From positions 96,918-160,917 of IMG/VR virus record IMGVR_UViG_3300026549_000035: a stretch of DNA of 64,000 nt. One strand, written 5' to 3'. This document shows positions 14,881-54,842 of the stretch, piece after piece. This DNA comes from a virus. Under the pieces are notes generated by a model. The model had not been told where the DNA came from. It saw only the letters and a program-made list of their open reading frames with translations, and did no database searches. The position numbers and the translations under genes are program-made. Positions within the stretch are counted from its first letter, which is position 1. Every line of letters starts with the position of its first letter.

Positions 14881-16176
14881 CATTATATTTTTCAATATAA
14901 ACCTGACTATATCTTATTCTAAACTTTGCTTTAATTTTAAATAAAGCTAATATTTTCTATTTAAATGAATTGGACAATCTTTATATAAAATATTTAAAAT
15001 AGATAAAACCTATTTTCTACCTCTCCATTCAGCATGCCAAGCAGAAGTAAAAAATATTTTATTAGATTTTTTCTTATGAATAATCTTATCTATTTCTTTT
15101 TGAAAATCTTTTACTACAGATTCATAATATGAAGTAAATCCAAAAGTAACATCAGTAGAATAATTCTCAGAACAATAAAAATTTCCATCACCATCAAATA
15201 ATCCTAATAAAAAAGATGTAATATATTGTTTTGGAATTTTTTCAAAAGGAATATGTTTTGAAAGATAAGTTTTATTAGGAACAATTCCAAAATTAATTAA
15301 ATCTTGATATATCTATTCGCTAACAAATTCAACAGAGCAACAAACGCTATTTATTCTTTTGTCATAAATAATTTTAGAATCAATCTATAAACATTCTTTA
15401 AATTTTTCTAATATTTCTTTATCTTTTTCCTATAACTATAATCTAATTCTCCCTGTATGACGATAATGATCAATATTGCCATCTGTATATAAAAAACCTA
15501 GCCAATAGGCTTTTTCGTGTGAATTAATTTCTGAAAAATAATTATTTTTTATTCGTTTATTAATTCTATTATAGTTTCTTTCAAAACCATGTTCTTCTTT
15601 TATTCTTCTTAAAGTTGTTTTATCTAAAAGATATTTTTTAGATAATTCAATATCAGAAATACCATTTTTTAAATCTTTTTCATATTCTATTAACTATTTT
15701 TTTGATAATTCTTTTTTCTTTCTTCCGCCTCGAATAGTAATATTATTTTTTGTTAAGATTTTTTGAATTCGATAATAACTAAAAGGGTATTCCTACGATA
15801 ATTTTTTTATAGATTTACCATTTAAATATTCTTCAATAATTTTATTTTCCATAATATTTTTAAAACTCTTTTATTTTTTCTATATAATTATGGAAAAATT
15901 TTAATTTTACTTTTCGTTTTTTGTCCAAAACTTTTCGTTTAGAATCCACGCGCTTCGGTATATATACCTACTCTACTTAGTTCATTTTTTTTATAAAATG
16001 CTGTTCGATAGTCGATGAACCTTTTTCTATTCGAAACTTGGCTGCTGATTACCCAATTCTTATAATTTTTAAACATTCACGCTTAATTTTATTTCATATT
16101 GACGTTGTAGTTTATAAGACTCTAAGGGAGTTCCAGCAATTCACGTGGTTTTATACTTGAGCCTTATCCATTTTTT
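14881..16176 (-). mobile_element. Group I intron in phoH, carrying a LAGLIDADG homing endonuclease.
   Basis: Exon 1 ...AKLG+tt after U, then TAA; the intron ends in G, and exon 2 t|tat gtt restores LGFYVYPGS, matching the PhoH LGFLPGD motif. Confidence 0.55.
14913..15852 (-). CDS. LAGLIDADG homing endonuclease with an N-terminal HTH; 9 in-frame TAG.
   Basis: Manual translation MENKIIEEYLNGKSIKKLSQ...AYWLGFLYTDGNI...LLGLFDGDGNF.... Confidence 0.65.
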
Positions 16177-39443: not shown

Positions 39444-39467
39444 TAAAATTATTTAATTAGTTCGCTT

Positions 39468-40611
39468 CGCGAACTAGATATTTATCACTCATTAACATTT
39501 CTAATGTTATATTATCTCTTTCCCAATATGGGATACGAACTAATGGAATATTATGAGATAAAGCATATTCATTCTTTTCTTTATCTCTTTGTTGTCTTTC
39601 TTTAAGAGAAGAGGATTTTTCCCATATATTATTACAAACTTCAAAATGCTATCTACCATCAAATTCAATAATACGAGAAATTTGATTATTTTCTATTATA
39701 ACAAAATCATATCGTTTTTTTGGTAAATCTGAAAAAATATATTCTTGTTGAAATTTTATATCATTATCTTGTAAAATTTTTTGAATATTTTTTTCTCCAA
39801 TAGAATAATTAATACAACCACAAGATTTAGTAACACCTCGTCTTAAAGAAACTCCATTAATAATTTTCTAATTTCCACAATCGCATTGACATAAATAATT
39901 ATAACTTCCATCAGAATCTTTTCCTGCTTGTTTTAAAACTATTAATTTTCCAATTCTTTGATTAATAATATTAATAGTTTTAGCTTGTGATATTGCTTCT
40001 ATTCTTTTACAACCACATGATTTTATTTTTCCAGAAACTAATTGTCCTCCTGCTACATAATGAATATTGCCACAATCACAATTACATTTCCAAATATAGT
40101 TAGAATTTTGTTTTTTATTTGTTTTTGATATTGCTATTAATGAACCAAACCTTTGGTTAGTTAAATCATGAAAAGTATTTTTTCCCATTTTTTTTGCATT
40201 TTCTTTTCTTAAACAGCCACAAGATTGAGTTATGTTTTGAACTAAATTTTTTGAACAAATGTCACATTCATTTCCACATTCACATTTACAATGCCATATT
40301 GCATTTCCATCTTTAGTTCGTTGTTTTATTAAATATAAAACTGTTAATTTACCAAATTTCTAATTTGTTAAATCTTTAATTTTTTTTCCTTTTAAATGTT
40401 GAGATTTTAATTTTTTACTACATTCAAGGCAAGCAATACGTTTTTGATCTATACGAATTTTTTCTATTGTACCACATGTACACTATGCCCACCAATAAGT
40501 TTTTTTATTTTTTATTTCTGCGGGTTTTAAAATTATAAACTATCCTCGAGTTTCTCCAGAATAATCTTTCATTTTAGAGGTTAAAGTAATTGTAGGTAAA
40601 TCATTAATATT
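39468..40611 (-). CDS. Homing-endonuclease-like protein: multiple zinc-ribbon modules plus a Vsr-like PD-(D/E)xK domain; many in-frame TAG.
   Basis: Contains track ORF 39868..40188 (FGSLIAISK...WKCNCDCGN...SCGC). C-terminal RYDFVIIENNQISRIIEFDGRQH...VRIPYWER. Confidence 0.5.
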
Positions 40612-40698
40612 CATTAAAAATTTCACATCCTTTTATTTTTCTATAGGATATAAAAATTAAGGGTAAAACATTAATCTGTTTTACCCTTAAAAATTTAC

Positions 40699-42252
40699 TT
40701 AATAAATACAGGAATATCTTTCTTCATTAAGTTTATCAAACATTAATGTAAAAGCGTTTTTATTTTGCATCACTTGTTCAAAAAGGTTCTGACTAAATCC
40801 AGAAATAAACTGAACATGACCTTCAGCTTTCATTGGAATATTATCTTGACGTGCGTCTAAATTCCAGAATGTAATACCTGGCATCTCATATCCTGCATTA
40901 TGCCAACGTTTTTCAATAGTTTCAAAAAGTGTCTCATTTGCAACACAATTCTCTCTACCATAGCTCCAGCGGTTAAAGGAAGTAGGACCGCCGCATACGC
41001 AGTTATTAAATTCCATATCACTCAAAATAATAACTTGTTTAGGTATATCTTCTTGAGGAATATGATTTTTAATTACAAGGTTAAGCATTTGATCAAATAC
41101 AGATTCAATGTTAGTGCTTCCACCCCAATCAGCCTTAGCAATTCTATTTACTTTATCTACAAAATCAACGCCTTCTACTTTAATAAAATCAGGATGATTG
41201 CTAAAAGTAAAGAAATGATTTGCAAAAGGTCCTGAATTATATTCTGCACAATACATACCAAGAGAAATAGCAACCGCCATGGGAGTTCCATACATACTTC
41301 CACTAGTATCTACAACGGCAATGCCATTGAAAGCATAACCATTCATAACATCATGAAGATTCTCCCAATATTTATTAATCATAAGACGCTCGACGTTATC
41401 AAGATCTTGACTTTTATCACCATAGCCGTAGCCATAACCCCAGCGACCAAAAGCCATAGCTTGCTTAGTTACTTCATAAGGATAAAGAGCCTTGGCGTTA
41501 ACCTTAGTGGTCTTATCCTTTGCGAAGTTTTCATAAGAAACTACTTCCTTCTCAGACTTCATGCGTTCAATGTCATGACGAGCAAAAGCGTTTCGATAAA
41601 TCATACCTGCGCGAGAAGGAATCTTATCGAATTCGATTTCATCCCACTTTCCAGCAGACATAAGCTTCTCAAGAACGCGAATACGTCCACGAAGAATAGA
41701 CAAAGTCTTACGATATTCACGATGACTCATATTCAAATAAGTGCGAGTCTTATTTGCAAGTCTACGTGATTCAAGTGAACTTGTATTTTCAGACTTCAAC
41801 CACTTTGCAAGCAAAGAAGGGGTCTTACTTTGAACATCAAGAGCCAACTGGTCTTTCATAATCTTAAAAGCGTCCTTTTCAAGGGAAGTCCCTACAAAGA
41901 CATAAAGGTCATCCCATCTCCGATATTCTGGAATATATTTGAGATTGCGACGCATTACTTCAGGATGTTCATGCGCAAGCCATTTTGCAATTATACGAAA
42001 AAAACGTCTTTCTCCTTGACCTCCTCTAATATCTGCGATATAAAAAAGACATTTCATCGCATAAGTCTCATTCTCTTCAAAAGCTTTTTTAAAGAGATTG
42101 ATACAGTCAACATCGCTTCTTGTGCGATAAGATGCGCCAAGAGCAAACAAGTCAAGCAAACCATTCATAGTTGACTTATAGGTTAAGGCTAAATTCTCAG
42201 TATAGGTGAGATTTTGCTTATTATCCAAAGCAGTTACAAAACGATTACTCAT
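40699..42252 (-). CDS. rsr: Ro60/Rsr-like protein: an alpha-helical TROVE-type N-terminal region plus a C-terminal vWA domain with a MIDAS motif.
   Basis: A 517-aa uninterrupted ORF. Roughly 300 aa of helical region, then GIAVVDTSGSMYG (a DxSGSM MIDAS motif) ...ISLGMYCAE...ILSDMEFN. A 240-nt leader begins at promoter copy 5. Confidence 0.55.
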   Translation of the reverse strand: MSNRFVTALDNKQNLTYTENLALTYKSTMNGLLDLFALGASYRTRSDVDCINLFKKAFEENETYAMKCLFYIADIRGGQGERRFFRIIAKWLAHEHPEVMRRNLKYIPEYRRWDDLYVFVGTSLEKDAFKIMKDQLALDVQSKTPSLLAKWLKSENTSSLESRRLANKTRTYLNMSHREYRKTLSILRGRIRVLEKLMSAGKWDEIEFDKIPSRAGMIYRNAFARHDIERMKSEKEVVSYENFAKDKTTKVNAKALYPYEVTKQAMAFGRWGYGYGYGDKSQDLDNVERLMINKYWENLHDVMNGYAFNGIAVVDTSGSMYGTPMAVAISLGMYCAEYNSGPFANHFFTFSNHPDFIKVEGVDFVDKVNRIAKADWGGSTNIESVFDQMLNLVIKNHIPQEDIPKQVIILSDMEFNNCVCGGPTSFNRWSYGRENCVANETLFETIEKRWHNAGYEMPGITFWNLDARQDNIPMKAEGHVQFISGFSQNLFEQVMQNKNAFTLMFDKLNEERYSCIY

Positions 42253-42502
42253 AATAATTTTCTCCTTTTTTTATTGCTTCCTCTTGGACAAGAGGATTTA
42301 TATAGAAAATAAAAAAGTAATTGGGGCCTCTTATAATATCCTTCCATATTCACACAAAACTTTGGAGACTTACTTCCTATGTCCTTTAATTGGTGAAGTG
42401 ATGTTTGTATACCTCCCATCCCGTCTCACGTAACGACAGCCCTATGAATAAGAATGCCGCACAATGAAAACTCAGAGTAGTGGGGAATTAATTACTTTTT
42501 TA

Positions 42503-42544: not shown

Positions 42545-42620
42545 TTAAGATTTTTTATTTGCATTATTTAATCATTTTTAAAATAAAAAAAACGATAAAG
42601 TATTATTAACTTTATCGTTA

Positions 42621-42965
42621 TGGTAGGATGAGAGGGATTCGAACCCTCACTTGATGGATTTTCTTACTACTCTATGTCACCATAGCCGTATTGCTACGTT
42701 GTAGTCTGGAGCACGTCTTTACCATGTGCGGCCGCAGATAATACGACCTCATTTAGGTAGTCGGTGTATGCTCTCTACACTCAGATTTTAGAGCTTTATT
42801 TTTACCTCTATAATCTTAGCACGGCGTTCTGTTAGCGCCTTCGCCGTTTTAGCCAACTTCTACTCTAAAGATTTCTCTTTAGGCACTCTCTGGATTTTAT
42901 CCAGTCTACGATATCGTAGAGCTAACATCAAAGTCCATTGCCTCTGCCGTTGGGCTACCATCCCA
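42621..42965 (-). tRNA. Class-I tRNA with anticodon UAA, interrupted by a 268-nt group-I-like intron between positions 34 and 35 (5' exon 42931-42964, 3' exon 42621-42662).
   Basis: 5' exon GGGATGGTAGCCCAACGGCAGAGGCAATGGACTT; 3' exon AAAATCCATCAAGTGAGGGTTCGAATCCCTCTCATCCTACCA. The intron begins after U and ends in G; A73 discriminator; CCA encoded. Confidence 0.55.
42663..42930 (-). mobile_element. Putative group I intron in the tRNA anticodon loop, at the U34/A35 position.
   Basis: Same insertion position and AAAAUCC 3'-exon start as the classic tRNA-Leu(UAA) intron; no ORF inside. Confidence 0.45.
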
Positions 42966-43146
42966 TATTTTCTTTTCCAAGACGGCTCAAAATATTTTTC
43001 GGAATCGAACCGAATCGCTTTATTTTCCAGACAAAGTGTGAAACCAAATCACTATAATATTCTTGAAAGAAAATTTGCTGTATCCGTCTTTATTATTTAT
43101 TATTTTTTATTTTCTATATATATTATATATTATTTTTTTATAAAAA

Positions 43147-43860
43147 TCAATTGATATTTTTATAATCAGAACTATGGAATGGTAAATTATATCCTTTACA
43201 CCATTTTCTAATAGTGTTATCTGATACATTAAATAATAGTCCAACTTTAGAAAAATTTCCTTTATTCTATAAAAGAATTTCTTTTAATTCTTTTATAGAA
43301 GGTCTGTTTTTTACTTTTCTAATTCTCTTTTTTTCACAATTCATACATCTAGTAGCACCTTGAGAAATTTCTTTTCCACAATCACAGCATAAATAAATTT
43401 TCTTTTGTCTATTTTTTATATTTTTACTACAAAATGTATCTAATTGCCTATCGCAATTTGGACATACCCAACGTAAATTTTCTAATCTATCATCAGTATT
43501 TATTCCATTAATATGGTCTAATGTTAGAGTTAATTCTTTACCATTCCAAAAAGGTTCCTAACCACATATTGCGCATTTATATTTAGTATAATTTCCTTTT
43601 ATATACCATCTTCTTAATACAGATTGTGAAGCGGTAGAATTTTTAATAAAAATATTTTTTTCTGTTCTTTCTATCTTTTCTGGTTGTAAAAAATGTTCTA
43701 ATGAAATATTCTATTTTTTACAATATTCAATAATTATTTTTGCTGGTCTACTATTATTACTATATCCTAATTTTGATTGTAATTCTTTAATAGAATTACT
43801 TTCTTTAACATATTTTTTTAATAATTCTAAATCACATTTTTCTATATATGAATTAGCCAT
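43147..43860 (-). CDS. Free-standing HNH endonuclease; 3 in-frame TAG.
   Basis: LDHINGINTDDRLENLRWVCPNCD and several Cys4 clusters. Confidence 0.6.
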
Positions 43861-43968
43861 AAAAATTCCTCCTTTATTATCTTCTATAATAATTAAAGAT
43901 TAAAGAGGTAAAATTATAATAACTCGACCAAAAAATTATATTTTTATTTATTTTTTGGTCGAGTCGTT

Positions 43969-44043
43969 TGGCGCCGGTGCTGGGAGTCGGACCCAGACAT
44001 GCGGTTTTAGAGACCGCCGCACTAACCGTTATGCAACACCGGA
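43969..44043 (-). tRNA. Amber suppressor tRNA (anticodon CUA), probably Gln-accepting.
   Basis: TCCGGTGTTGCATAACGGTTAGTGCGGCGGTCTCTAAAACCGCATGTCTGGGTCCGACTCCCAGCACCGGCGCCA: anticodon loop CU-CUA-AA, G73, weak 1:72 pair (both Gln-tRNA hallmarks), CCA encoded. Promoter copy 7 sits immediately upstream. Confidence 0.75.
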
Positions 44044-44058
44044 TTATATATATCTCTT

Positions 44059-44100
44059 ATTTTCTATATATATTATATCAAATTTTTTTATAAAAATCAA
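44059..44100 (-). promoter_or_regulatory. Sigma70-like promoter repeat (copy 7) directly driving the tRNA-CUA suppressor gene.
   Basis: On the minus strand, TTGATTTTTATAAAAAAATTTGATATAATATATATAGAAAA, i.e. TTGATT-N17-TATAAT. Confidence 0.6.
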
Positions 44101-44261
44101 GTTTTGGTTGCCAGAGCGTCAACTCTGGCAACGCTCCCAACTTATTGGCGTAAGAAGGGTTTTTCGTGTTAATCTCGGGAAACACCGGTCGCCGCCTTTT
44201 CAAGACCGCTTCCAAAACCCGCTAGTACTAACATATATTAGGAATTATAACCTAATATATC

Positions 44262-44336
44262 TGGTACGGTGAGCAGGACTCGAACCCGCATAAGGTAGAT
44301 TAGAAATCTACTGCCTATCCTTTAGGCTACCACCGC
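44262..44336 (-). tRNA. tRNA-Arg (UCU).
   Basis: Cloverleaf with loop UU-UCU-AA; T-loop TTCGAGT; CCA encoded. Confidence 0.7.
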
Positions 44337-44726
44337 AAATAAAAATTAAGAATAATGCTCCTCAGCATAGCAATTTGCACATAATAATTCACATTTATCA
44401 ATTTCTTTATATAAAGAAAATCAAATTAATAAAGATCTTCACTATATAATTCATATTCGTGTTTATCACGTTTATATTGACGAGTAACTGCGCTTAATTG
44501 ACCATTATTCATTGCAACTTCAAATGCTTCTTCTCTTGTAAGAAATTCATTTTTAGTATTTATGAAACCTTGTTCAATTTGACTCATACCAATTTTAATT
44601 CCTAAATCATGAAGTATTGAAAAACCATCGCCATGACGACAACAAGGTATTACTACATCTGTTTCTTTAATTTTTAAAGCTGCACAAAGAATAATCATTT
44701 ACATTTTCCTTTTTTTTCTTAATAAT

Positions 44727-44819
44727 TGGCGCCGACTCCCGGACTCGAACCGGGACACCGTTTACACGATTACTGGCGGTTTTCAAGGCCGCTGCCTTAC
44801 CAGTTAGGCTTAAGTCGGC
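44727..44819 (-). tRNA. tRNA-Ser (UGA), class II.
   Basis: GCCGACT acceptor, 3-bp D stem, long variable arm, loop CU-UGA-AA, G73. Confidence 0.7.
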
Positions 44820-45393
44820 ATATATAGAGCGAGATTAAAATTCTCGCTCGAAATTTACTCTATTAGCAGTTGCAATCATCCAAGCAGCTGAAGAATCTGC
44901 AACATAACTCTTCATCTTATCAACTCTACGCTGAGCAGCTTCTGCCGCACGCTCTGCCTTAGCAAGCTCTTTCTGAGCTCTATGCATACGCTTTGTAGCA
45001 ATCTTCTCTGCGCAACGAGCCATGGCAAGGTCTTCACCCTTAGCCATATCAAAATTGTCTCTCGGGTCACACTTAGCTACACCTCTTACAGTTTTGCCAG
45101 CGTAAGTAGATACTGCTACAATCTTATTTTTTCCATCGTTATAAAACTTATACTTGTTTTTCATTTTTATTATACTCCTTTTTCTCATTTTCTATTATTT
45201 CTTGGTATAAAAGACATCCTTCTAACCAAATTGGGTTTGTGAGCCACACATCATACATCTTTTTTGAATAAATTGGTCTAAATCAAACATATTTACTCCT
45301 TTTCAAGACTCAAGACGCTTTTATTTTGCTATTTTAATTCCCTAAATTAATGCATCATAAATAAAAAGATTTGCAGTATACGTCTTATGAAAA

Positions 45394-45468
45394 TGGAGCC
45401 TCGGGACGGATTTGAACCCCCTTTAGCAGATTACTAAACTGCCGTTCTACCAATTAAACTACCGAGGC
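45394..45468 (-). tRNA. tRNA with an atypical anticodon region: anticodon AGU (Thr, A34) with a U31-U39 mismatch, or alternatively a 9-nt loop.
   Basis: GCCTCGGTAGTTTAATTGGTAGAACGGCAGTTTAGTAATCTGCTAAAGGGGGTTCAAATCCGTCCCGAGGCTCCA. Confidence 0.45.
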
Positions 45469-45639
45469 AAATATAGAATCGAGCTATAGGACTTTCACCT
45501 ATAGGAACAATATCTAGGTTAGGTCTGCGCAGTCCCGCACTAGAAAGCCTTTTACTAATTAACCTGTGGGCTTAAACAGTCTTTTTCTAAAATATTTTTG
45601 TATTGTTTTTTCATATTTCATACTTTTAAGAGATTTTCT

Positions 45640-45735
45640 TTTTGGTCGAGATATTGTAAGATTCGAACCTACACCTCCGCCCTTCTCTGGGCAGCATGCT
45701 AGCCTATTACACCATCACCCTAATCTCTGCTACAC
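45640..45735 (-). tRNA. tRNA-like element with a T arm and a long extra arm; acceptor and anticodon arms not resolvable. Possibly a pseudo-tRNA.
   Basis: GGTTCGAATC T-loop and a GCCC-AGAGAA-GGGC extra hairpin; tgg at 45644. Confidence 0.3.
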
Positions 45736-45820
45736 TATTTTAGCATTGTACGGATGCTTATAAAATAGTTTGTACGTTGTAGCATAATCCATATGGCTTT
45801 ATACTCACTACTCGATTATC

Positions 45821-45897
45821 TGGAGCGGCTGACGGGATTCGAACCCGCAGTCTCATGCATGGCAAGCACGTGCGCTAGCCGATTGCGCCACAGCCGC
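45821..45897 (-). tRNA. tRNA-Gly (GCC).
   Basis: GCGGCTG acceptor, loop UU-GCC-AU. Confidence 0.7.
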
Positions 45898-46079
45898 AAA
45901 TATAATGGCATTTAGTTATTAATTACAGCTGATTCTTAATAACCTGCAGTTACTTAGCGCCATCTAACTAAACCAAGTTATCACCATTTTGTATAGTGGG
46001 AAAGCATCACTTTCAATCGCACCCATCATTTAAAAGCTATACCTTTTGGTATTTATATCTATTTTTATATAAATCAAAA

Positions 46080-46695
46080 TTATCCATATCGCCATTTATA
46101 TTTAGCAGCTGTTTTTCGACGACCCGTACAGACTTCTGTAATATGTTGTTTAATAGTTGTATGTTTACAACCTGTTAATTTTTGTTTTACCATATAACGA
46201 GCGGCTTCGTTGGTAGAAGGAAAACTATGTAAAAATTTTCCTTCTAAATCATACATATTTGTAATTTTACCATATTTCATAGTTTGAACTTCTTTAATTG
46301 AAGCTACTTTAATATTATTACTATGTAAAATTCGAGAAATAGTGCCTTGATCAATAGATAATTTTAAAGCTACATCTTTAACACTACCTAATTCTTTATA
46401 AGTGGCAATTACTAAATCATAATCAATATATTTTCTTCCATCGCCCCCTAAAGTGGCATTATATCCATTTTTAAAAGAACGATAATGTTCAATCCAGTAT
46501 TTTTCTCTCTCTTCTGGATTGTTTGTTTCTTCTATTTGTTCGATATGAAAATGTTCAATTCCATATTTTTTCATAGCAGAATATAAAGGACGTTTTTCAT
46601 TATGCTCTTTAAAAGCATCTCGACAATGTTCTTTAAATCTTTTTTCAATAGAAAATTCTGTTTTACCGATATAAATTTTCTAATTTATATCATTA
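46080..46695 (-). CDS. GIY-YIG homing endonuclease; 1 in-frame TAG, unclear (possibly non-ATG) start.
   Basis: YIYKITNDIN-TAG-KIYIGKTEFSIEKRFKEH plus the C-terminal E.YWIEHY...GYNATLGG (track ORF 46080..46574). Confidence 0.5.
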
Positions 46696-46801
46696 GTAAT
46701 TTTATAAATGTATGCTATAATTAAACAGCTCCTTTTTTATTTTTTTTTAGGAAATTAGTAAAAACAGTATCGCCACGAGAAGGCCTTCCTTATGATACCG
46801 A

Positions 46802-46883
46802 GCTGAAGGTGGGATTCGAACCCACGCGGGCAAAGCCGACGGCTTACAAGACCGTTCCAATCGACCACTATGGGACTTCAGCA
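46802..46883 (-). tRNA. Class-II-shaped tRNA (3-bp D stem, 13-nt extra arm) with anticodon loop CUUGUAA, reading as UGU; U73; no CCA encoded.
   Basis: GCTGAAG...CTTCAGC perfect acceptor; ACGGT-CTTGTAA-GCCGT. Confidence 0.45.
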
Positions 46884-47582
46884 TATATTGCGAAGGCACA
46901 ACCCTTCGCCGTAGAAGACTTTCTCCTAGAGTTCCCCAGTCTTTCAGCGCATAATTACTACGAACTAGGTGGTGGAACCATTTATTGCGCCGGCTCCGTA
47001 TCTTTTTTCTTTTTTATTTTCTTTTCATTTTCTATATATATTATATAATATTTTTTTATAAAAATCAATTAAACCTTTTTTATTTAAAAATTTTGAAAAG
47101 TGATTTTGTTTTGGGTTTACGGTTTTTACGCGCGCTCGCGCCGCAAGCAAACCGTTCGGTCATTATTATATAATAAAAAAAAATCCCCTGATATGAAACA
47201 TCGTTACTTGAACCTACTTTATATGCGCCAGTCAATATAACTTGCCATATACTAAAATACCTACCTCTTTTTACATTTCATCAAGTGTATAAAGATTACT
47301 TTGTAAAACCTTTTACCATCGGTCAAAACTTTTCACTATTTTCATATCAGAAGATTCGTTAATTGTATAATTTCAAAATAAAGACGACAGACAAGAAATG
47401 AAGAGCTTTCTTTTTTACTTTATATACAACTAACCTTTTTAATTCCCTGTCGTATTTTTCTTCACTACTGCTCTACCAGCCTTCAATGTCCTACGTAGGT
47501 TTAAATATAATGAAGGATTTAATTGTAAACTATCAGTATTAACCACCAAGCACCACGGGGAGGTTGTTTACATTCGCTTAGC

Positions 47583-47665
47583 GCATGGTCCCGCGTCGTG
47601 GAATCGAACCACGTGAGTCTTACGACACCTGATTTACAGTCAGGACAGCTTCCATATACGGGATA
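47583..47665 (-). tRNA. tRNA-Tyr (GUA)-like, class II, with a defective acceptor/D region. Possible pseudo-tRNA or tRNA mimic.
   Basis: CCTGA-CTGTAAA-TCAGG, long extra arm, a CGTGG/CCACG T arm, ACGCGGG-A-CCA; 5' strand pairs poorly. Confidence 0.4.
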
Positions 47666-47672
47666 CCGTGGG

Positions 47673-48113
47673 TTATTTAATTTTATATTGAGAATATTTT
47701 TCTCCTAATGTCATAGCATTTGAAGTTAATATATTTTGAGGTAATAACCACTCTTCTCCTTTTTCATTAAGAACAAAAACATAATCATTATTTTTATCTT
47801 TTTCACGTCCATAGACAGAACCGTTTGTGCCCCCACAATTTCTTAAACTAACTACAGAATATCCTGATGAAGCATGAGAACCAGTTGCTTTACAACTAAT
47901 TTTTAAAATATCATTTCCATCATCAACAATTAAATCATAATCTTGAATATCATTTAATGGGATACAAACAGTATATCCATTCATTCCGAAATAAGCAATC
48001 GCAGCTGAAATTCCAGCTCGACCTTTATCTTTATTAGTTTCAAATAACAATGTAATCAACTCCTTCATTATTACTTGAAAAATACAACAGACACCCTGTC
48101 TGTTTTTGCCCAT
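47673..48113 (-). CDS. PD-(D/E)xK nuclease family protein (putative homing endonuclease).
   Basis: GRAGISAAIAYFGMNGYTVCIPLNDIQDYDLIVDDGNDILKISCK, a paralog of the ORF at 54399-54830; immediately 5' of the defective tRNA-Tyr-like gene. Confidence 0.45.
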   Translation of the reverse strand: MGKNRQGVCCIFQVIMKELITLLFETNKDKGRAGISAAIAYFGMNGYTVCIPLNDIQDYDLIVDDGNDILKISCKATGSHASSGYSVVSLRNCGGTNGSVYGREKDKNNDYVFVLNEKGEEWLLPQNILTSNAMTLGEKYSQYKIK

Positions 48114-49068
48114 ATATTAGCAGATTAAATCTTTTACAAGATCTTTATCTGCTTTTTTTCTTAACTAAATCAAAAAATAAAAATGAATTTGAAAAATTTG
48201 CGTGAACCTTCGCTCTACAATTTTTATATTTCCTGCTTGTTAGACTACCGAGGAAACAAGTCTGAGCATTAGGGGAGCGACCCCGACACTTCTTGCCCCA
48301 GTCCCAAAGGACCAATTCTCGGAGAGGAATGTTTACCTCCAACTTTCACCCGCCGTTCAGAAGTTTTTATTCATAAACTGCTATCTATTTTCCATTAATC
48401 GTTGCTTATGGGCTACTCGCGCGTTGACCTTACCTTATAGCCTTGTTACCAAGACATCACAGCAGACCCTCTTATTAGCATTTCCTTGGTTTGCAAAGGT
48501 TGCTAAGCCTATTACCTAACAAGGATTCTTCCCCATCTGGGGCGTCTATTATGAGGGCGATAAGACACCGTCCTAGCTTAGAAAATATAACTTGCGCTAT
48601 TTACCTTCGGCGTTTTACTTTTATAAAACAATTTCAATTTATCACTAAAAAGAAATTTCACAATATTTCAAAGTATCCTTTGAAGTTGTTTAGCCCGCAC
48701 CTTAGTGTGGTAAATACCTCAGCACAATGGCATTTGCTCTGCACTGAGTTACGCAAATTTTCAAAGTTCTTGTAAGAAATTAGTGGAAACAGCATCGCCA
48801 CGAGAAGGCTTCTTACTTGATGCCATATGAGAGGTTTTAAACCATCCGAATGGGAGTCGAACCCATCCTGTGGGGAATCAAACCTTGCTTACCTCTCGGG
48901 TTGCCCCGCAACCTCATGAAACGATTTTAAGGTTAATCGAGAACCTTGGTAGTGTGGCGCTTGCCCAAAGGCTTACCTCGCGACCGCAAACCAATCTTTA
49001 AATGCTGGACTCTTCTAATCCTACATCCTACCTCTTTTGGTCTTACACTTGCTATTAAGCATGATGCC

Positions 49069-49145
49069 ATGGCGGGGCCACCCAGATTTGAACTGGGATC
49101 ATTGGAGTCAAAGTCCAATGTTTTAACCTCTTAAACTACAGCCCT
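49069..49145 (-). tRNA. tRNA-Gln (UUG)-like with only 3-4 acceptor base pairs; CCA encoded.
   Basis: Perfect TTGGA-CTTTGAC-TCCAA anticodon arm, CCCAG/CTGGG T arm, but 5' GGGCTGT versus 3' TGGCCCC. Confidence 0.4.
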
Positions 49146-49507
49146 ATATATCAAGACCGAATATTTTTAGCTATTGATCTCCCAACTGATCTATTTGTCA
49201 AATTAATTTTGGCTGACAAAGCAGGAATCGAACCTGCGACGTATAGTTTAAAACTATAATTGCTGTATCGGTCTTTATTTTCTATATATATTATAACAAA
49301 TTTTTTTTATAAAAAACAATTTGTTTTATTTTCAACTAGACCTTAAAGCTCTTTAACAAGTATAACCATCAATGTAACCCTTGTTTGAACTCTCTATCAA
49401 TTACATATCGCTTGGCTAAAATCGTCTAATGATATATTAATATCAACCAGTCTTTTTATCATTTATTATAATGAAAGATTGCTGTATAAGGTCTATTAAA
49501 TTTTATG

Positions 49508-49584
49508 TGGACCGAGTAGTGGGACTTGGACCCACGGCCTCTTGAACCCAAATCAAGCGCTCTACCAAACTGAGCTATACCCGG
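49508..49584 (-). tRNA. tRNA-Pro (UGG).
   Basis: CTTGA-TTTGGGT-TCAAG. Confidence 0.7.
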
Positions 49585-49589
49585 ATATA

Positions 49590-49666
49590 TGGTAGGAATG
49601 GAAGGAATCGAACCCACGACCTCTCGGTTATCAGCCGAACGCTCTAACCATCTGAGCTACATTCCT
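49590..49666 (-). tRNA. tRNA-Ile (GAU).
   Basis: AGGAATGTAGCTCAGATGGTTAGAGCG...CTGATAA... Confidence 0.65.
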
Positions 49667-49795
49667 ATATTTATTTTTTTCTCTTTTTATTTTCTTTTCA
49701 TTTTCTATATATATTATATAATATTTTTTTATAAAAATCAATTTATAATTTTTATTCCAAGGGGAGAATTTCTTCTCCCCGGAACAAAAAGATTC

Positions 49796-50330
49796 TTACG
49801 GCCACTCGCCAAGAGGTTTTCCAAGATTACCACGTTCAACATCTGTGCAATAATGAACGCCAATAGGAGTATTTTCAAATACCTCAGGAGCAATATCTTG
49901 ATAAAGAGTGCTAACATTACCAAAAGCATCATTTAGATTGTCATTAAAAAATTGAACTACACAATTCTTAAAAATAATATAAGTAAAATCAATGAATTGG
50001 TAACCATCTTGAACAGGAGCAACACAACAAGAGAAAGCTGGATTCTTCTCAAAGACGGTTTCAAATAGCTCTTTATTACTTGTAAAAGCTTTATTAGACA
50101 TAGGACCATCAACAGAAATTGTCCAAGTAATATTACCCCATGTTTTTTCAGATGGAAGCAATTTTACTAATGCAGTAGCTTTATTTCCGTTATTTGTTGC
50201 AATAACTAAAGAATTCTTTCTTGCATTAATATTAATTGCGATTTTGGGATCTCCATCAAGAAGTGCTTATACCTAATTGATATAAGTAATCCAAGGCGGA
50301 GAAAGTTTAAGTCTTACATCATTCATATTT
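49796..50330 (-). CDS. Hypothetical protein; 2 in-frame TAG near the N-terminus.
   Basis: Extends track ORF 49796..50161 upstream through MNDVRLKLSPPWITYINQVQALLDGDPK.... Confidence 0.4.
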
Positions 50331-50402
50331 CCTTTTCTCCCCTTTTATATAAAAATTTTAAAAGAGAATTAACTCTTTTAATGATTAAGTAATTTTATTT
50401 TT

Positions 50403-50495
50403 TGGCGGAGCAGGTGGGACTCGAACCCACACGCCGCCGAAACGGTTACTAACAGTTTTCTAGACTATTCCCTTACCAATTAGGGTTACTGCTCC
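50403..50495 (-). tRNA. Class II tRNA-Ser-like with anticodon AGA (A34), G73.
   Basis: GGAGCAG acceptor, ATAGT-CTAGAAA-ACTGT, a 19-nt extra arm. Confidence 0.5.
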
Positions 50496-50498
50496 ATG

Positions 50499-50576
50499 TG
50501 GGGTAAACGGTGGGATTCGAACCCACGATCTTCAGAGCCACAATCTGACATGCTAGCCATCTGCACTACGCCTACC
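50499..50576 (-). tRNA. tRNA-His (GUG) with an encoded G-1.
   Basis: G-GTAGGCG...TCAGA-TTGTGGC-TCTGA; C73. Confidence 0.7.
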
Positions 50577-50582
50577 ATATTT

Positions 50583-50906
50583 TTATAATAGCTGCGATTC
50601 TGTTACATCCACAGAAACTCTTAAAGCAATTCGATCAAGTTTTTCACGCATTATTTGTCTAACTTCTGAACTAAGACAATTTTTTAAAGCTCTACCGGCA
50701 TTATCTTCGAAATAGGCTTGAACAGAACCTTCCACATTATATTCCGCCATAGCTTGTTTACAAGCTTTATTAAGTTCTTCATTAAGAACCTCCTTAACCA
50801 TATCTTTTAAAGTATCTTTAGTAATTCCTGCTTCATTGAGCATTTGTCGAATTTCTTGTCGCATATAAATTTCTTCAATCTTCATATTGCTTTTCCTCTT
50901 GCACAA
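50583..50906 (-). CDS. Hypothetical protein.
   Basis: ORF. Confidence 0.35.
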   Translation of the reverse strand: MCKRKSNMKIEEIYMRQEIRQMLNEAGITKDTLKDMVKEVLNEELNKACKQAMAEYNVEGSVQAYFEDNAGRALKNCLSSEVRQIMREKLDRIALRVSVDVTESQLL

Positions 50907-51126
50907 TAATTTGATTACCGTATGAATCTAATAAAGGTTCAAATTTACCATGATCATAAATATATAGCTCTTTAGATTTTGGATCTACATATACCATGTA
51001 TTGATAAAAACCTTGAGAATATTTGTTGCTTTCTTTTCCTATTTCTTTTATAGCAAAAAACGCAGTTAATATAATTAAAATTATTCCTATAATAGAAATA
51101 ATGATTTGTTTAATATTATCTTTCAT
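50875..51126 (-). CDS. Small membrane protein (hypothetical).
   Basis: Hydrophobic N-terminal helix. Confidence 0.4.
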   Translation of the reverse strand: MKDNIKQIIISIIGIILIILTAFFAIKEIGKESNKYSQGFYQYMVYVDPKSKELYIYDHGKFEPLLDSYGNQIIVQEEKQYED

Positions 51127-51137
51127 AATCTTTCCTT

Positions 51138-51234
51138 AATATAAAATTGGCGGTAGGTCTGGGACTCGAACCCAGACACCGAAATAAATTCGATTACTCA
51201 GAGATTAGCAATCTCCTGCCTTACCAAATTAGGC
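51138..51234 (-). tRNA. tRNA-Ser (GCU), class II.
   Basis: GGAGA-TTGCTAA-TCTCT, long extra arm, G73. Confidence 0.7.
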
Positions 51235-51503
51235 TTAACCTACCATAAATAAATAAAAAGTAGAGAATAAAAAGAAGAAATAATTGTTCCTTGCCATTAC
51301 AATTATCCAGAATTAAAAAACTTTCTCTACGAAGAGTTTTATTTTTTCTGAAGATAACACTATATATAAAGTGATAGCAACCTGCAGCCTGACTGCTTAA
51401 AAAAGGTGATTATCATAACAAAGTTTTTTAAATACGCGAATATTCCAAAAGAAAGGTAAAATACGTCAGGATCTCACTTTACAGGTCTTAAATACAGTGT
51501 TAA

Positions 51504-51580
51504 TGGTGCTTGCGGAAGGTGTCGAACCTTCATCCTCTGGTTCTTCAGACCAGCGCTCAGACCGCTTAAGCTACACAAGC
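51504..51580 (-). tRNA. tRNA-Phe (GAA).
   Basis: CTGGT-CTGAAGA-ACCAG. Confidence 0.7.
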
Positions 51581-51586
51581 ATATGA

Positions 51587-51663
51587 TGGTACCAAAGACT
51601 GGGTTTGAACCAGTGACCTTCGCCTTATGAAGACGTTGCTCTAACCAACTGAGCTACTTTGGC
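51587..51663 (-). tRNA. tRNA with anticodon CAU (elongator Met or Ile2).
   Basis: Loop UU-CAU-AA. Confidence 0.6.
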
Positions 51664-51670
51664 ATATATA

Positions 51671-51746
51671 TGGTGTTCAAGGTGGGATTTGAACCCACAA
51701 AACCTTGGGTTTGAGCCAAGTATGTATGCCGTTCCATCACTTGAAC
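51671..51746 (-). tRNA. Class-I tRNA with anticodon CAA, A73.
   Basis: GTTCAAGTGATGGAACGGCATACATACTTGGCTCAAACCCAAGGTTTTGTGGGTTCAAATCCCACCTTGAACACCA; canonical 76-nt cloverleaf with a 5-nt variable loop. Confidence 0.6.
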
Positions 51747-51749
51747 AAA

Positions 51750-52091
51750 TTAATATTTTCTTTTTCTACGACGACTTAAAAAATCAATGATTATAGGATT
51801 ATGCATTTCATGTGAAATTAGGATATCACCATAAATTCTATCTACTGGAATTGGCATAATAGAAGGATTTTCATTCGGAGAAATTCTAAGGAAAGAGCAA
51901 ATGTTTATAGCTTGTTCTAATTCATTTGTAAAAACAATAAAGAACTTACGACTAACCTTATATTTATTTACAACTTCTTGAATCATAGAAAATTCTTCAT
52001 CAGTGCATACACATAAACAATCTTCTATAATTCCTTTTTCCAATTGCTTAGCCATAATTTCTAACCAAGCTCTATTCAAAGTATGTAGCAT
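51750..52091 (-). CDS. Hypothetical protein.
   Basis: ORF. Confidence 0.35.
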   Translation of the reverse strand: MLHTLNRAWLEIMAKQLEKGIIEDCLCVCTDEEFSMIQEVVNKYKVSRKFFIVFTNELEQAINICSFLRISPNENPSIMPIPVDRIYGDILISHEMHNPIIIDFLSRRRKRKY

Positions 52092-52867
52092 AATAAATCT
52101 CCTTAGTTAAAAAGATTTGCAATCATTAAACCAATCTATATAATACCTACTATTAGAATGAAGAAAGAAAAATTACCTTCTTTCATTTCATTAGTTATCT
52201 TAGAAAAGAATTTTCGCATTTTTTCTTCCCCCATTTCTTTTTATTTATATATTATTTTTATTGCTTTTATTTAAAAACATTAAATGAACTCCCATTTTCT
52301 TGAATATAAGCAATAGTTTCTAAAACAGTTTTCTTTCCATACTTTTTTACTAAAGCATCAAAATAATAACTATCATTATATCCAGTATTACCAATAAAAG
52401 GATATATATATTTTCCTACATCTTTCAACAGAATTTCATCCATTATTATTATCTCCTTTTTTTCTAGACACACTATAATCTTTGGTCAAATACGTTGCCA
52501 ACTGCGCCATTTTACAAAATGAAGTAAAAGTCGGATTCGAACCGACGACACCCTGATGTTACAGAATATAATTTTTGCTGTGCGTGTCTGAAGGATATAA
52601 AAAATATATAATTATTTGGCGGGTGCGACTTTCTCCCGCATCTCTCAGATTGTAACAATATAAACAATCTTGTCATACCATCGGCGTATAGGCGTCGCGG
52701 AATCTTCCTACTTCAAATAATTATAAACGTAAGATTGATAAGGAACTCAGGTCTGCCTTATATCTTTTGCATATGTGAAGAGCGACTTCACGCAAATGTA
52801 GAGAGCCTCTATTTTTTCTACTACAATCTTACTTAGCATTGATTGAAGGCTAATGCTCAATACCTTC

Positions 52868-52943
52868 TGGTGCTCCGTACTGGACTCGAACCAGTGACCC
52901 TCTGTTTGTAAGACAGACGCTCTCCCAACTGAGCTAACCGAGC
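52868..52943 (-). tRNA. tRNA-Val (UAC).
   Basis: TCTGT-CTTACAA-ACAGA. Confidence 0.7.
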
Positions 52944-53265
52944 ATATAAATGGCGTCTTGGTTTTTCGCACTTACGAAGGCTTGCCCATTGCCGGTTTTA
53001 CATCCATTTCGCCTTTTGGATAATATTTATCTTGTCGAGTGTGCAGTTTCAATCACACGCATCCCTGATGGATTTCAGCTTTTATTTATACCAGTACATC
53101 GGCACGGAGTGCAATCCTCCTATTGTTCCATCGTATGGGCTATATTCTCTTCTCGGCTTTTAATGCTTGCCTATCGACATCAGGATAATCGCGGTTTTTG
53201 TGTATACAAAAACTATTGTGTATTTGCAGAGAGAATTTTTGAACCATTACCTCTCGCGACTAAAA

Positions 53266-53340
53266 TGGCACGGCTCATCCGATTCGAACGGATAATAAAG
53301 GATTCGTAGTCCTCCGGTTTCTCCATTAGCCTAGAGCCGC
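53266..53340 (-). tRNA. tRNA-Arg (ACG).
   Basis: GAGGA-CTACGAA-TCCTT. Confidence 0.7.
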
Positions 53341-54121
53341 ATATAAAACTGATAGGTAAAAAATTTTCTTGTAATGAAAATAGAAAAAGATGTTTTCGTA
53401 AAAGCCAAAGAAAGGAAATCAAAACGAAGATTACAAGTTTTATAAAAGACTCCTATCAGAAAAATAGTCTTTTATTACAAAGAGAGGGATATACAGCAGT
53501 AGCAATTCCCTGTAGCCTAACCTGCACAAAAAATGTGGTTAGGATCCTGCCAACAGTTCTTTCTTTCTTTATTTTCTATATATATTATAACAAAATATTT
53601 TATAAAAATCAATTTTTTCATAAAATAATAGACAAGCGCAATTAGTTAATCCAATTTTACATTACACCTAGACACTTTCGAGTTGGTCTGCGTAGCCACA
53701 CCACATCCAATAAATATTTAAACCTACAAGGGGTATATTTATTATCGCCTCAAATTTTTTTAACTAATATAACTTGTCTATTATTTCTTATGTCAGTATC
53801 AAATATACTCCCATCAGACACGATAGAGAGAAACTACCTCTCTTATTTGACTTAACATAATAATATTCACTTAAATTGACTGATGTTTCACACATTTTCC
53901 CATGTAGTTATGCTATTACTTAAATCGGCGAATAGACTTAAAGTGGACTCCTACCGGCGTCATATATATTGTTTCAATGACGACTTCAAAATAAGGATAT
54001 ATCGTTTCACCTTATTTCTAAAATATAATATGATATACGACACAATTTCGGATTCTTTTTCAAGAATTTGGCACAGCTGCCGCACCACGCCAATGCTTTT
54101 AATTATTTTATCATATTATAA

Positions 54122-54197
54122 TGGTTCGGGGTATAGGATTCGAACCTATGACTCGTAGCTTATGAAGCTCCGCTGCTGACCTCTGCATTAACCCCGT
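54122..54197 (-). tRNA. tRNA with anticodon CAU and an A1-A72 mismatch (Ile2/Met/initiator-type).
   Basis: Loop UU-CAU-AA; A73. Confidence 0.55.
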
Positions 54198-54209
54198 ATA
54201 TTTTTATAT

Positions 54210-54286
54210 TGGTGCCGCGGGTGGGATTCGAACCCACACTGTATTGCTTCTAAGGCAACCGCCTCCTGCCATTGGGCTACCGCGAC
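54210..54286 (-). tRNA. Class-I tRNA with anticodon UAG, A73.
   Basis: GTCGCGGTAGCCCAATGGCAGGAGGCGGTTGCCTTAGAAGCAATACAGTGTGGGTTCGAATCCCACCCGCGGCACCA. Confidence 0.6.
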
Positions 54287-54360
54287 AAAACTAGACACTT
54301 TTTTAGCGAAATAATTTAAAAGATTATAGCTTAAAAATAATTGCTGAATGTGTCTATTTA

Positions 54361-54405
54361 TGGTGCGCGTGGCGGGTCTCGAACCCACGACGCCTTGATT
54401 AATGA
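54361..54405 (-). pseudogene. Truncated tRNA: only the 3' half (T arm, acceptor 3' strand, CCA). It abuts the stop of the PD-(D/E)xK nuclease gene.
   Basis: ...GGCGTCGTGGGTTCGAGACCCGCCACGCGCACCA with no matching 5' half. Confidence 0.45.
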
Positions 54406-54830
54406 ATTATTTTATCAAATTCATAGTCTGAAACTAAATTTATGTTTCCTTGATTATTTTTTGGTTTATCTAGCCTAAAAGATAAAGTTTTATGTGTTCC
54501 TATAATATTAATTGAAACTAAAATAATTTTATCCCAACAAGCTAAATAAAAACAAAAATAATCAATATCATTTTCATAGGTAGTATAATGTTTATTTGTA
54601 GTATGGTTAGTGCTACTAGCACAAGGACAAGATATAGAACCAGTATTTTGAAGCTAGTTACAATATTTTACCTAAATTTTATTTAATTTACCATTAAATT
54701 CTGCAATTAAATCATACCTTGCATTATCTCCAAATGGAATTGCTACTTGGATATTCCGTTTGGTAAACTCTGCTAAAGCAATAGCTTCACCTATATTGCC
54801 TTTAGTTTTACTATTCATAAATATTCTCCT
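54399..54830 (-). CDS. PD-(D/E)xK nuclease family protein (putative homing endonuclease); 2 in-frame TAG.
   Basis: MNSKTKGNIGEAIALAEFTKRNIQVAIPFGDNARYDLIAEFNGKLNKIQVK..., with D...D...QxK spacing. Confidence 0.45.
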
Positions 54831-54842
54831 TTATATTTAAAA

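Follow-up and report, generated by a model that had tools for sequence, protein, structure and literature searches.

Two small nuclease genes, designated ORF1 and ORF2 (ORF, open reading frame), were found among the transfer RNA (tRNA) genes of a 64,000-nucleotide (nt) stretch of phage DNA, positions 96,918 to 160,917 of the IMG/VR virus record IMGVR_UViG_3300026549_000035; this whole stretch is referred to as the window. Both genes are on the minus strand, marked (-) below, ORF1 at 47673..48050 and ORF2 at 54399..54818. ORF1 abuts a tRNA-Tyr(GUA) gene, and ORF2 lies within a tRNA-Lys(UUU) gene that is split at the anticodon loop. A preliminary description of the window had noted two paralogous PD-(D/E)xK nuclease ORFs, each ending beside a broken tRNA gene, and had proposed either homing endonucleases that had invaded tRNA genes or nucleases that process tRNA-like RNAs. 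The two paralogous nucleases were confirmed and each does adjoin tRNA sequence, but the tRNA is broken only at the ORF2 locus, the Tyr gene being full length.

Family, fold and reading frames of the two nucleases

Both predicted proteins scored above the curated cut-off (26.1 bits) of the Pfam family PDDEXK_5 (PF11645), ORF1 with 44.6 bits and ORF2 with 105.5 bits, and both matched the sequence of I-Ssp6803I (PDB 2OST) in phmmer searches, with E-values of 0.0026 and 1.2e-5. I-Ssp6803I is a proven homing endonuclease of the PD-(D/E)xK type whose gene lies in a group I intron, at the anticodon loop of the Synechocystis tRNA-fMet gene, and it makes a double-strand break in the DNA of the tRNA-fMet anticodon arm; to our knowledge, this cyanobacterial intron enzyme is the only member of the PDDEXK_5 nuclease family that has been studied. 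Both ORFs also matched PHROG 5018 ('unknown function'), no NCBIfam family was found for either, and their mutual identity is about 23%. An AlphaFold (AF2) model of ORF1, built with an alignment of 73 homologs, had a predicted local distance difference test (pLDDT) score of 94.2. The top four Foldseek matches of this model were chains A-D of 2OST (template modeling (TM) scores 0.74-0.78, E 1.4e-7 to 6.3e-7); Hjc resolvases and SPARDA nuclease domains matched far more weakly, and a tRNA-splicing endonuclease appeared only at an E-value of 0.26. Judged by sequence, both ORFs are members of the I-Ssp6803I homing-endonuclease family, and the predicted fold agrees for ORF1.

Throughout the family alignment the K, G, P, D and Y-D residues were invariant. 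ORF2, of 139 amino acids, carries the motif D..Q-V-K, in which the Gln is encoded by TAG and this first TAG aligns with the Q of the QVK of 2OST. ORF1, of 125 amino acids, keeps the Asp and Lys and has Ser where the family has Gln (D..S-C-K rather than Q-x-K), so the QxK core first ascribed to both proteins is not common to them. Ser occupied this position in 34 of the 73 sampled protein clusters, including every cluster at least 61% identical to ORF1. Inactivation of ORF1 by the Gln-to-Ser change was considered and rejected as a sign of decay, because Ser is fixed across the sub-clade and the ratio of nonsynonymous to synonymous substitution rates (dN/dS) is low. This ratio was 0.11-0.15 in comparisons with two 83% identical relatives (L118 and L119; related loci are given L numbers), which indicates purifying selection.

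The start of ORF1 is most likely the TTG at 48050 and not the ATG at 48113 from which it had been drawn before, since the longer frame from the ATG contains a terminator-like hairpin and the N-termini of the homologs, all of them MxFETNKDKG, favor the shorter one. An AAGGAG ribosome-binding site read from the sequence (48060..48065 (-)) stands 9 nt ahead of the TTG. The hairpin (AACAGAC AGGGT GTCTGTT followed by a T-run, 48086..48104 (-)) separates ORF1 from a full-length ROOL RNA directly upstream of it (48184..48772 (-); Rfam RF03087, 332 bits, above the gathering score). A ROOL RNA of 334 bits was also found in L024.

For ORF2 the previously given end at 54399 stands, and the start was moved from 54830 to 54818. 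Its frame contains two in-frame TAG codons (54674..54672 and 54656..54654), both opposite Gln in close homologs, so that the intact 139-amino-acid protein is obtained only if both are read as Gln. In-frame TAG codons at Gln positions of paralogs or Pfam families were present in many other long reading frames of the window, which indicates that the genome reads TAG as Gln. Translation of ORF2 through its TAG codons would need a suppressor tRNA with anticodon CUA, and ARAGORN located such an amber suppressor at 43969..44043 (-). By these TAG/Gln alignments, on which the recoding was judged, the window comes from a low-GC phage (31% G+C) in which TAG is decoded as Gln. Stop-to-stop ORF statistics were discarded as a test of TAG recoding, being uninformative in AT-rich DNA, where reading TAA as sense lengthens ORFs equally.

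No frameshifts were seen among dozens of relatives of the nucleases. The ORFs of L001 (L001:274-276), L022, L023 and L024 contain an in-frame TGA at positions occupied by Trp or Phe in homologs: the L001 clade reads QWYDF there, and L022-L024 have 'LP*GDN' against 'IPFGDN'. The reassigned codon of some related phages would thus seem to be TGA instead of TAG.

A tRNA-Lys(UUU) gene split around ORF2

The sequence at the end of ORF2 is the 3' half of a disrupted tRNA-Lys(UUU) gene, read from the sequence as 41 nt covering tRNA positions 36-76 (54361..54401 (-)): UAA, the 3' strand of the anticodon stem, the variable loop, the T arm, the 3' strand of the acceptor stem, A, and CCA. The ORF2 stop codon TAA (54401..54399) forms the first three bases of this half. 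It had been described as a tRNA with a 3' half only, at 54361-54405; the half is real within its corrected limits, but a 5' partner exists at 54975..55004 (-), on the far side of ORF2 (positions 1-31, GTGCGTG TG ACGC AGAGGTA GCGT A GCTGA). In a search for partner strands the two halves paired at seven of seven acceptor-stem positions, and a D stem of 4 bp formed in the 5' half. The halves are separated by an AT-rich spacer of 55 nt, an intact tRNA-Lys(UUU) gene, a ribosome-binding site and ORF2. The intact gene (54843..54919 (-); called by ARAGORN, 71.2 bits with the Rfam tRNA model) is 24 nt upstream of ORF2 and thus inside the split gene, from which it differs in sequence; its acceptor strand is GGGAGUA and its anticodon stem UCAAA/UUUGA. 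By sequence, the locus is a tRNA-Lys(UUU) gene split at the anticodon loop with ORF2 inside.

Related phage genomes, to which the preliminary description had looked for undisturbed copies of the tRNA genes, supported the idea of an invasion at this locus. In L012 and L018 a homologous tRNA-Lys(UUU) gene carries the nuclease in a group I intron, in the order 5' exon, 5' part of the intron, ORF, 3' part of the intron and 3' exon; the intron parts align with an ORF-less intron scored at 66 bits by Rfam. The intron-borne ORFs are 68% and 63% identical to ORF2, and the 3' exon is nearly the same as the 3' half in the window. The window 3' half is identical to the L012 3' exon at 33 of 41 positions and to the adjoining intact tRNA-Lys at only 28 of 41, and the reading of it as a duplicate of the latter was rejected for this reason; the 5' half is likewise homologous to the L012 exon (GAGCGTG..). 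The split tRNA-Lys gene of the window is, on this sequence evidence, of the same gene lineage as the intron-bearing tRNA-Lys genes of L012 and L018.

A group I intron around ORF1 or ORF2 in the window itself was rejected, as Rfam gave no RF00028 match at either ORF at E ≤ 1 and there is no room for one (24 nt upstream and 0 nt downstream of ORF2). The conserved intron blocks of L012, or of an intron elsewhere in the window (42612..42951), were also not found between the tRNA-Lys halves. That intron, ORF-less and about 290 nt long, lies in the anticodon loop of a tRNA gene with anticodon UAA or UUA (42612-42951 (-)), which was reported by neither ARAGORN nor Rfam; its blocks TGTGTAGAGA…CCTAAAT…TCCAGACTAC…AGTAGTAAG align with the Rfam-validated intron in L012.

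The split layout recurs in L025, where both stems of the halves are fully complementary and the nuclease is only 54% identical to ORF2, and in L038 for a tRNA-Tyr gene; the ORFs in L011-L024 are 60-71% identical to ORF2. Split tRNA-Lys genes have UGA-loop-UCA beside the anticodon loop, while the intact tRNA-Lys genes linked to the nucleases have AAA-loop-UUU, a difference that fits a role of the latter as a nuclease-resistant replacement tRNA. A conserved element, (T/C)GCGGTAAGTAGTTTTCGAGTTGCAACTATTGTAGCCAGCATTAG, lies directly 3' of the CCA of tRNA-Lys, or of a tRNA remnant of 10-12 nt, in four of the loci (L011:4524-4570, and L013, L016 and L017 from about 4433); it may be another 3' processing RNA.

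An uninterrupted tRNA-Tyr(GUA) gene at the end of ORF1

The tRNA-Tyr(GUA) gene at the ORF1 locus (47586..47672 (-)) begins at the base right after the ORF1 stop codon (47675..47673), with zero spacer. It is an 87-nt class II tRNA with C1-G72 and an encoded CCA, and is the only tRNA-Tyr in the array. It was detected with relaxed ARAGORN settings, at 93% of the threshold, and was missed at the default; the Rfam tRNA model gave no match at E ≤ 1. The gene had been placed at 47583-47665 with an unpaired acceptor, which proved to be mostly a matter of register: with the limits corrected, five of the seven acceptor pairs form. In the whole cloverleaf 20 of 23 pairs form, with the T, anticodon and variable arms intact, and the three that fail are A4.C69, a C.U in the D stem and 7.66, the last often unpaired in the family. 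Aligned with 12 related tRNA-Tyr genes, the family cloverleaf was 92.3% paired and 20 of the 23 pairs showed compensatory changes.

The closest sequence was L146, a metagenome contig 94.2% identical over 1242 nt. Its tRNA-Tyr differs from the window copy at 2 of 87 bases, and G4-C69 and the D-stem pair, each broken in the window, are both intact in L146. The two base-pair defects are therefore, as far as the sequences tell, recent point mutations unrelated to nuclease invasion, and the full-length gene is one that has not been invaded. In this respect the relatives did not support the earlier account of the Tyr locus, for in every close relative the nuclease gene abuts an intact tRNA-Tyr. Within the group with 69-85% protein identity, L118, L119, L147 and L148 have the ORF followed by an intact tRNA-Tyr, and L120-L123 have an intact tRNA-Tyr followed by the ORF, after which a short tRNA 3' remnant remains in L120-L122. 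The window tRNA-Tyr is likely to be functional rather than dead, given that it is the only tRNA-Tyr in the array and has its own 3' processing element, described below.

Two other views of this gene were tried and rejected. A tRNA-Tyr without a D arm, with six of seven acceptor pairs and an 11-nt D replacement, was set aside because the 5' part of the gene aligns base for base with L118, L119, L146 and L054. A 5' half of a tRNA-Tyr upstream of ORF1 was also dismissed, as only the terminator and the ROOL RNA are there. Exact-pattern searches of viral contigs for the window Tyr gene gave 0 matches. In L002 a tRNA-Tyr-like gene lies 3' of the nuclease ORF (L002:4391-4482). Its acceptor stem is perfectly paired over 7 bp, the D arm is replaced by only about 10 nt, and the variable region measures 29 nt; the ORF runs into this gene, which ARAGORN did not call and which may be a genuine D-arm-less case.

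A ribozyme candidate 3' of tRNA-Tyr

Directly 3' of the tRNA-Tyr gene is a candidate self-cleaving ribozyme of the hepatitis delta virus (HDV)-like, theta type (47524..47582 (-)). Its helices, drawn by hand, are P1 GCUAAGC/GCUUGGU with a G1.U wobble, P2 UGUAAAC/GUUUACA and P3 ACC/GGU; L3 is UCCCCGU, a GG is available for P1.1, and the putative catalytic C is at 47536 in J4/2. The predicted cut, 5' of G47582, is 3 nt past the CCA end at 47586, so that the candidate would cut the 3' trailer of tRNA-Tyr. Its Rfam scores are below gathering (24.5 bits against 44 for RF02682, with a local E-value of 0.015, and 17.3 against 37 for drz-agam-1), while an HDV-like descriptor written for the analysis matched the window twice, against 0.05 matches expected. 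The element is kept in L146, with changes at unpaired positions only, and homologs of it occur directly 3' of tRNA-Leu (L023/L024), tRNA-Gln (L014/L015) and tRNA-Met (L005). A second HDV-like candidate in the window (60965-61019 (-); GGUAAC…GCC UCCUCGU GGC GUUACU GG…ACUAUC) follows a terminator-like hairpin after an ORF, not a tRNA.

Association of the nuclease genes with tRNA genes in other phages

In all, 37 related loci and then 71 further loci of the ORF1 clade were examined. Nearly all of the first 37 were in tRNA arrays, on the same strand as the tRNAs. In the ORF1 clade about 35 of the 71 loci had tRNA-Tyr directly downstream and most of the others tRNA-Ser or tRNA-Leu, all of them class II tRNAs. 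Altogether, nuclease genes stood directly beside or inside tRNA genes at more than 100 related loci, including those of cultured T5-like and Bacillus phages: in the T5-like phages SelmaRatti and My1 and the Bacillus phage BCP12, the distance from an ORF annotated 'hypothetical protein' to the tRNA behind it is 2-14 nt, or the two overlap. The junction of zero to a few nt between ORF and tRNA was kept across phage families and among proteins with as little as 35-45% identity. This recurrence in relatives and in annotated cultured phages indicates that the adjacency of ORF and tRNA is not due to chance.

Among 452 T5-like phages sharing the flanks of the locus, only SelmaRatti has the nuclease gene, a distribution that, read from the sequences, is the pattern expected of a mobile nuclease gene. 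Its sister phages have a small Toprim ORF in the same slot. The slot is immediately upstream of tRNA-Ser(GCU) and the ORF there encodes a 172-amino-acid Toprim-domain protein (L144:1252-1770, Escherichia phage DaisyDussoix; L145:1191-1709, JLBYU43), so that PDDEXK_5 and Toprim amount to a swap between two small nuclease-like genes.

tRNA-Tyr genes split by ribozyme-free cassettes

Seven distinct relatives contain a tRNA-Tyr(GUA) gene split in the anticodon loop, at CTGT|AAA or CTG|TAAA (U35/A36 or G34/U35 of the tRNA), by a cassette of 439-445 nt: L054/L055:1472-1928, L073:1461-1922, L095:1466-1923, L097:1452-1913, L113:1454-1911, L114/L115:1471-1931 and L116:1480-1935. The first and last 7 nt of the cassette pair as a covarying stem of 7 bp, next to which the last codons of the ORF make up a canonical T arm. 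In six of the seven this is followed by N-CCA; L113 has no CCA, its exon resuming directly after the discriminator base. The cassettes leave no room for a ribozyme, and their ends look like a tRNA-like minihelix, an apparent substrate for RNase P and RNase Z. These two enzymes could excise the cassette exactly at the exon borders, and a phage RNA ligase could reseal the anticodon loop. It is possible, though doubtful, that nuclease and tRNA together form two-part mobile modules of a nuclease and a resistant replacement tRNA, which home into the sensitive tRNA allele at its anticodon loop, that the module of this sister branch became a ribozyme-free tRNA intron, and that ORF1 with tRNA-Tyr in the window is its resolved, uninterrupted form. 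The intact exons of the split tRNA-Tyr genes could simply reflect recent invasion.

Possible functions of the nucleases

The probable explanation of the two loci is that both ORFs are homing-endonuclease genes of the I-Ssp6803I family in the tRNA array of a TAG-recoded phage, each tied to one tRNA species. By analogy with I-Ssp6803I, the nucleases would be mostly free-standing, tRNA-linked homing endonucleases that cleave DNA at a site in the tRNA gene. When a co-infecting genome lacks the nuclease gene and has a sensitive tRNA allele, such an enzyme would cut both DNA strands in the anticodon arm of that allele, and recombinational repair would copy the nuclease gene together with the tightly linked tRNA. 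The linked tRNA, because its AAA-loop-UUU stem differs from the UGA-loop-UCA of the target, would escape cutting and would replace the function of the destroyed gene. The flanking tRNA halves would be remains of the target that act as homology arms, and RNase P, acting at the tRNA that ends the ORF, probably also determines the 3' end of the nuclease mRNA. The presence of GIY-YIG, LAGLIDADG and HNH genes in the window provides supporting context. The original proposal that homing endonucleases invaded tRNA genes thus agrees with the family match and with the gene split around ORF2, but does not extend to tRNA-Tyr.

Several points weigh against this explanation. We know of no phage member of the family with a determined cleavage site or target, and with Ser in place of the Gln of Q-x-K throughout its sub-clade the catalytic competence of ORF1 is uncertain. 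The anticodon arm of the window tRNA-Tyr (CCUGA CUGUAAA UCAGG) is the same as that of the tRNA-Tyr genes split by cassettes in L054 and L095, so that an ORF1 enzyme active there would cleave the genome that encodes it. No relative of the window lineage without ORF1 was found, L146, L118 and L119 all carrying it. The anticodon-stem strands of the two tRNA-Lys halves in the window pair at only three of five positions, which means that the halves may be decayed or come from two alleles, and the idea that the linked tRNA is resistant is drawn from four to six loci. The preliminary description had named two observations that would count against its own reading, tRNA-like sequences in relatives without adjacent nuclease genes and a loss of catalytic residues; neither was made for ORF2, and for ORF1 only the Gln-to-Ser replacement was.

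The strong purifying selection on ORF1 and the stability of its S-x-K sub-clade would also be expected if the nucleases had been domesticated, that is, if they were kept because a cut in the tRNA cluster of a competitor, or of the phage itself, lets tRNA genes be inherited preferentially or amplified as segments, which would help counter host defenses that cleave tRNA-Tyr or tRNA-Lys. Linkage to these two tRNAs points the same way, as the defense system Septu cleaves tRNA-Tyr and is overcome by SegB-driven amplification (PMC13096335), and SegB secures preferential inheritance of the tRNA region of T4 (PMC2330249). However, there is no tandem amplification of a tRNA-Tyr or tRNA-Lys segment in the window, and such a role, which for the PDDEXK_5 family would be argued by analogy with SegB, is compatible with selfish homing rather than exclusive of it; domestication was considered unlikely. 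Still less probable is that the ORFs and tRNA pieces have no present function and are decaying leftovers of old insertions, their tight spacing being that of a compact array. The two TAG codons in ORF2, the family Gln missing from ORF1, the two fresh stem-breaking changes in tRNA-Tyr and the tRNA-Lys halves, which are non-functional remnants, would all suit decay. However, each of the TAG codons coincides exactly with a Gln position, the genome has a CUA suppressor tRNA and many genes that contain TAG, ORF1 has the low dN/dS given above, dozens of relatives are without frameshifts, and the tight junction is kept between divergent proteins and across phage families.

An action on RNA, either cutting precursor tRNAs or excising the inserts from split tRNAs, was judged highly improbable. 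The ORFs are always co-oriented with and abutting tRNA genes, relatives have tRNA-Tyr genes split by ORF cassettes without a ribozyme, and the PD-(D/E)xK fold is distantly common with the archaeal tRNA-splicing endonuclease (the Foldseek match at E 0.26). Against this, the sole characterized member of the family is a DNA homing endonuclease, the four I-Ssp6803I chains are far stronger structural matches than the splicing endonuclease, ORF2 keeps the D..(Q)xK residues for chemistry on DNA phosphodiesters, and the intron-borne members in L012 and L018 would need no protein for splicing. The processing of tRNA-like RNAs, offered earlier as an alternative to homing, therefore found no positive support.

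Comparison with known systems

The nucleases of the window resemble I-Ssp6803I in family (PF11645), in the small size of both ORFs, in the fold predicted for ORF1 (TM 0.74-0.78), in the D..Q-x-K of ORF2 and in the site, a tRNA anticodon loop, and the relatives in L012 and L018 are also intron-encoded. They differ in that the carrier is a phage and not a cyanobacterium, that the tRNA is Lys(UUU) or Tyr(GUA) and not fMet, and that there is no intron at either ORF: ORF2 shares a split gene with a replacement tRNA, and ORF1 stands free, with an uninterrupted tRNA downstream. ORF1 furthermore has Ser for Gln, and the proteins are only 23-27% identical to I-Ssp6803I. A tRNA gene is also the target of integrative elements that bring with them a copy of the part they displace, and there too the incoming tRNA sequence preserves tRNA function. 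However, these elements rely on integrases and rebuild the gene they enter through duplication of its 3' end, whereas here a whole second tRNA gene travels with the nuclease gene and the target is left as two dead halves.

Free-standing homing-endonuclease genes in phage tRNA clusters are established for SegB of T4 and T6, the most similar biology in the literature searched, which promotes inheritance or amplification of the adjoining tRNA genes (PMC2330249, PMC13096335). The segB gene, too, stands free within the tRNA cluster of a phage and shows a statistical association with tRNAs, but SegB is a GIY-YIG enzyme of unrelated fold and shows no preference for a tRNA isotype, while the clades described here keep to Lys or to the class II tRNAs Tyr, Ser and Leu. 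No split tRNA halves and no replacement tRNA have been reported for SegB. Theta ribozymes are minimal HDV-like ribozymes at the 3' ends of tRNAs in recoded gut phages, defined by a cleavage site within ±5 nt of the tRNA 3' end (Kienbeck et al. 2024, PMC10879173). Like these, the candidate in the window has a minimal HDV-like fold immediately behind a phage tRNA, its predicted cut is no more than 5 nt from the tRNA end, and its phage is TAG-recoded and has an RNA ligase gene (PF09414). It differs in that its tRNA is a Tyr with an encoded CCA, whereas CCA is encoded in only 4.5% of theta-associated tRNAs and more than 70% of the theta hits are with tRNA-Met, suppressor tRNA or tRNA-Leu (PMC10879173), and in that its Rfam score is below threshold, self-cleavage being predicted from sequence.

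These data extend PDDEXK_5 from a family with one example to one that is widespread in phage tRNA clusters, in three layouts: within a group I intron of a phage tRNA gene, as a free-standing gene next to a tRNA, or in a split tRNA gene with a spare tRNA. No report of the family in phage tRNA arrays was found in the literature searched, the coverage of which was incomplete; in PHROGs the family is labeled 'unknown function', and in GenBank its members are mostly 'hypothetical protein'. A 2014 review stated that all phage introns then known were in protein-coding genes (PMC3984707), a statement on which the group I introns in phage tRNA genes bear, and no later report of such introns was found in the same, incompletely covered literature. 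The loci provide systems for asking how selfish nucleases spread through tRNA arrays without loss of tRNAs to the phage; they also bear on the mosaicism of phage tRNA arrays, and possibly on the retention by phages of tRNA-Tyr and tRNA-Lys, which are targets of host defenses. For annotation, TAG should be read as Gln in such genomes and tRNA halves should be sought on both sides of such ORFs, and tRNAs missed by standard finders should be expected.

Other features of the window

ARAGORN called 33 tRNA genes in the window, all on the minus strand and spanning 42989-62316, for 19 amino acids; Tyr was the sole absentee at default settings. DNA searches of GenBank phages found no close relative of the window, with tRNA-sized matches only. 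Besides ORF1 and ORF2, five ORFs resembling homing endonucleases are present, two GIY-YIG, one LAGLIDADG, one HNH and one with a NUMOD1 domain (508-1554, 9157-10029, 14914-15870, 43147-43899 and 46080-46574, all (-)), and most of the five have in-frame TAG at Gln positions.

Inside the tRNA array, a skipping-rope RNA (52611-52721 (-)) scored 43.8 bits, above the Rfam gathering score, and a YrlA-like Y RNA match (49150-49275 (-)) scored 35.9 bits, below it. Also in the window are an RNA ligase gene (PF09414, 23532-24995 (-)), a major-vault-protein-like gene with MVP shoulder and Vault_3 domains (30743-33256 (-)) and a gene for a DUF2828/DUF7788 protein (40699-42270 (-)). Together with the Y-RNA-like and ROOL RNAs, these genes suggest a gene set for an RNA-protein particle or for RNA repair. 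A search of viral contigs with the window RNA ligase, made to link it with the split-tRNA loci, returned zero relatives. Three paralogs with CxCxCG repeats (27058-27882, 28737-29645 and 39457-40632) had no Pfam match where tested. T-arm-like hairpins with a 5-bp stem and a UUCRANN-type loop were present outside the called tRNAs at 45656-45672, 48850-48866, 52530-52546 and 62338-62354 (-), and may be further tRNA fragments or tRNA-like elements.

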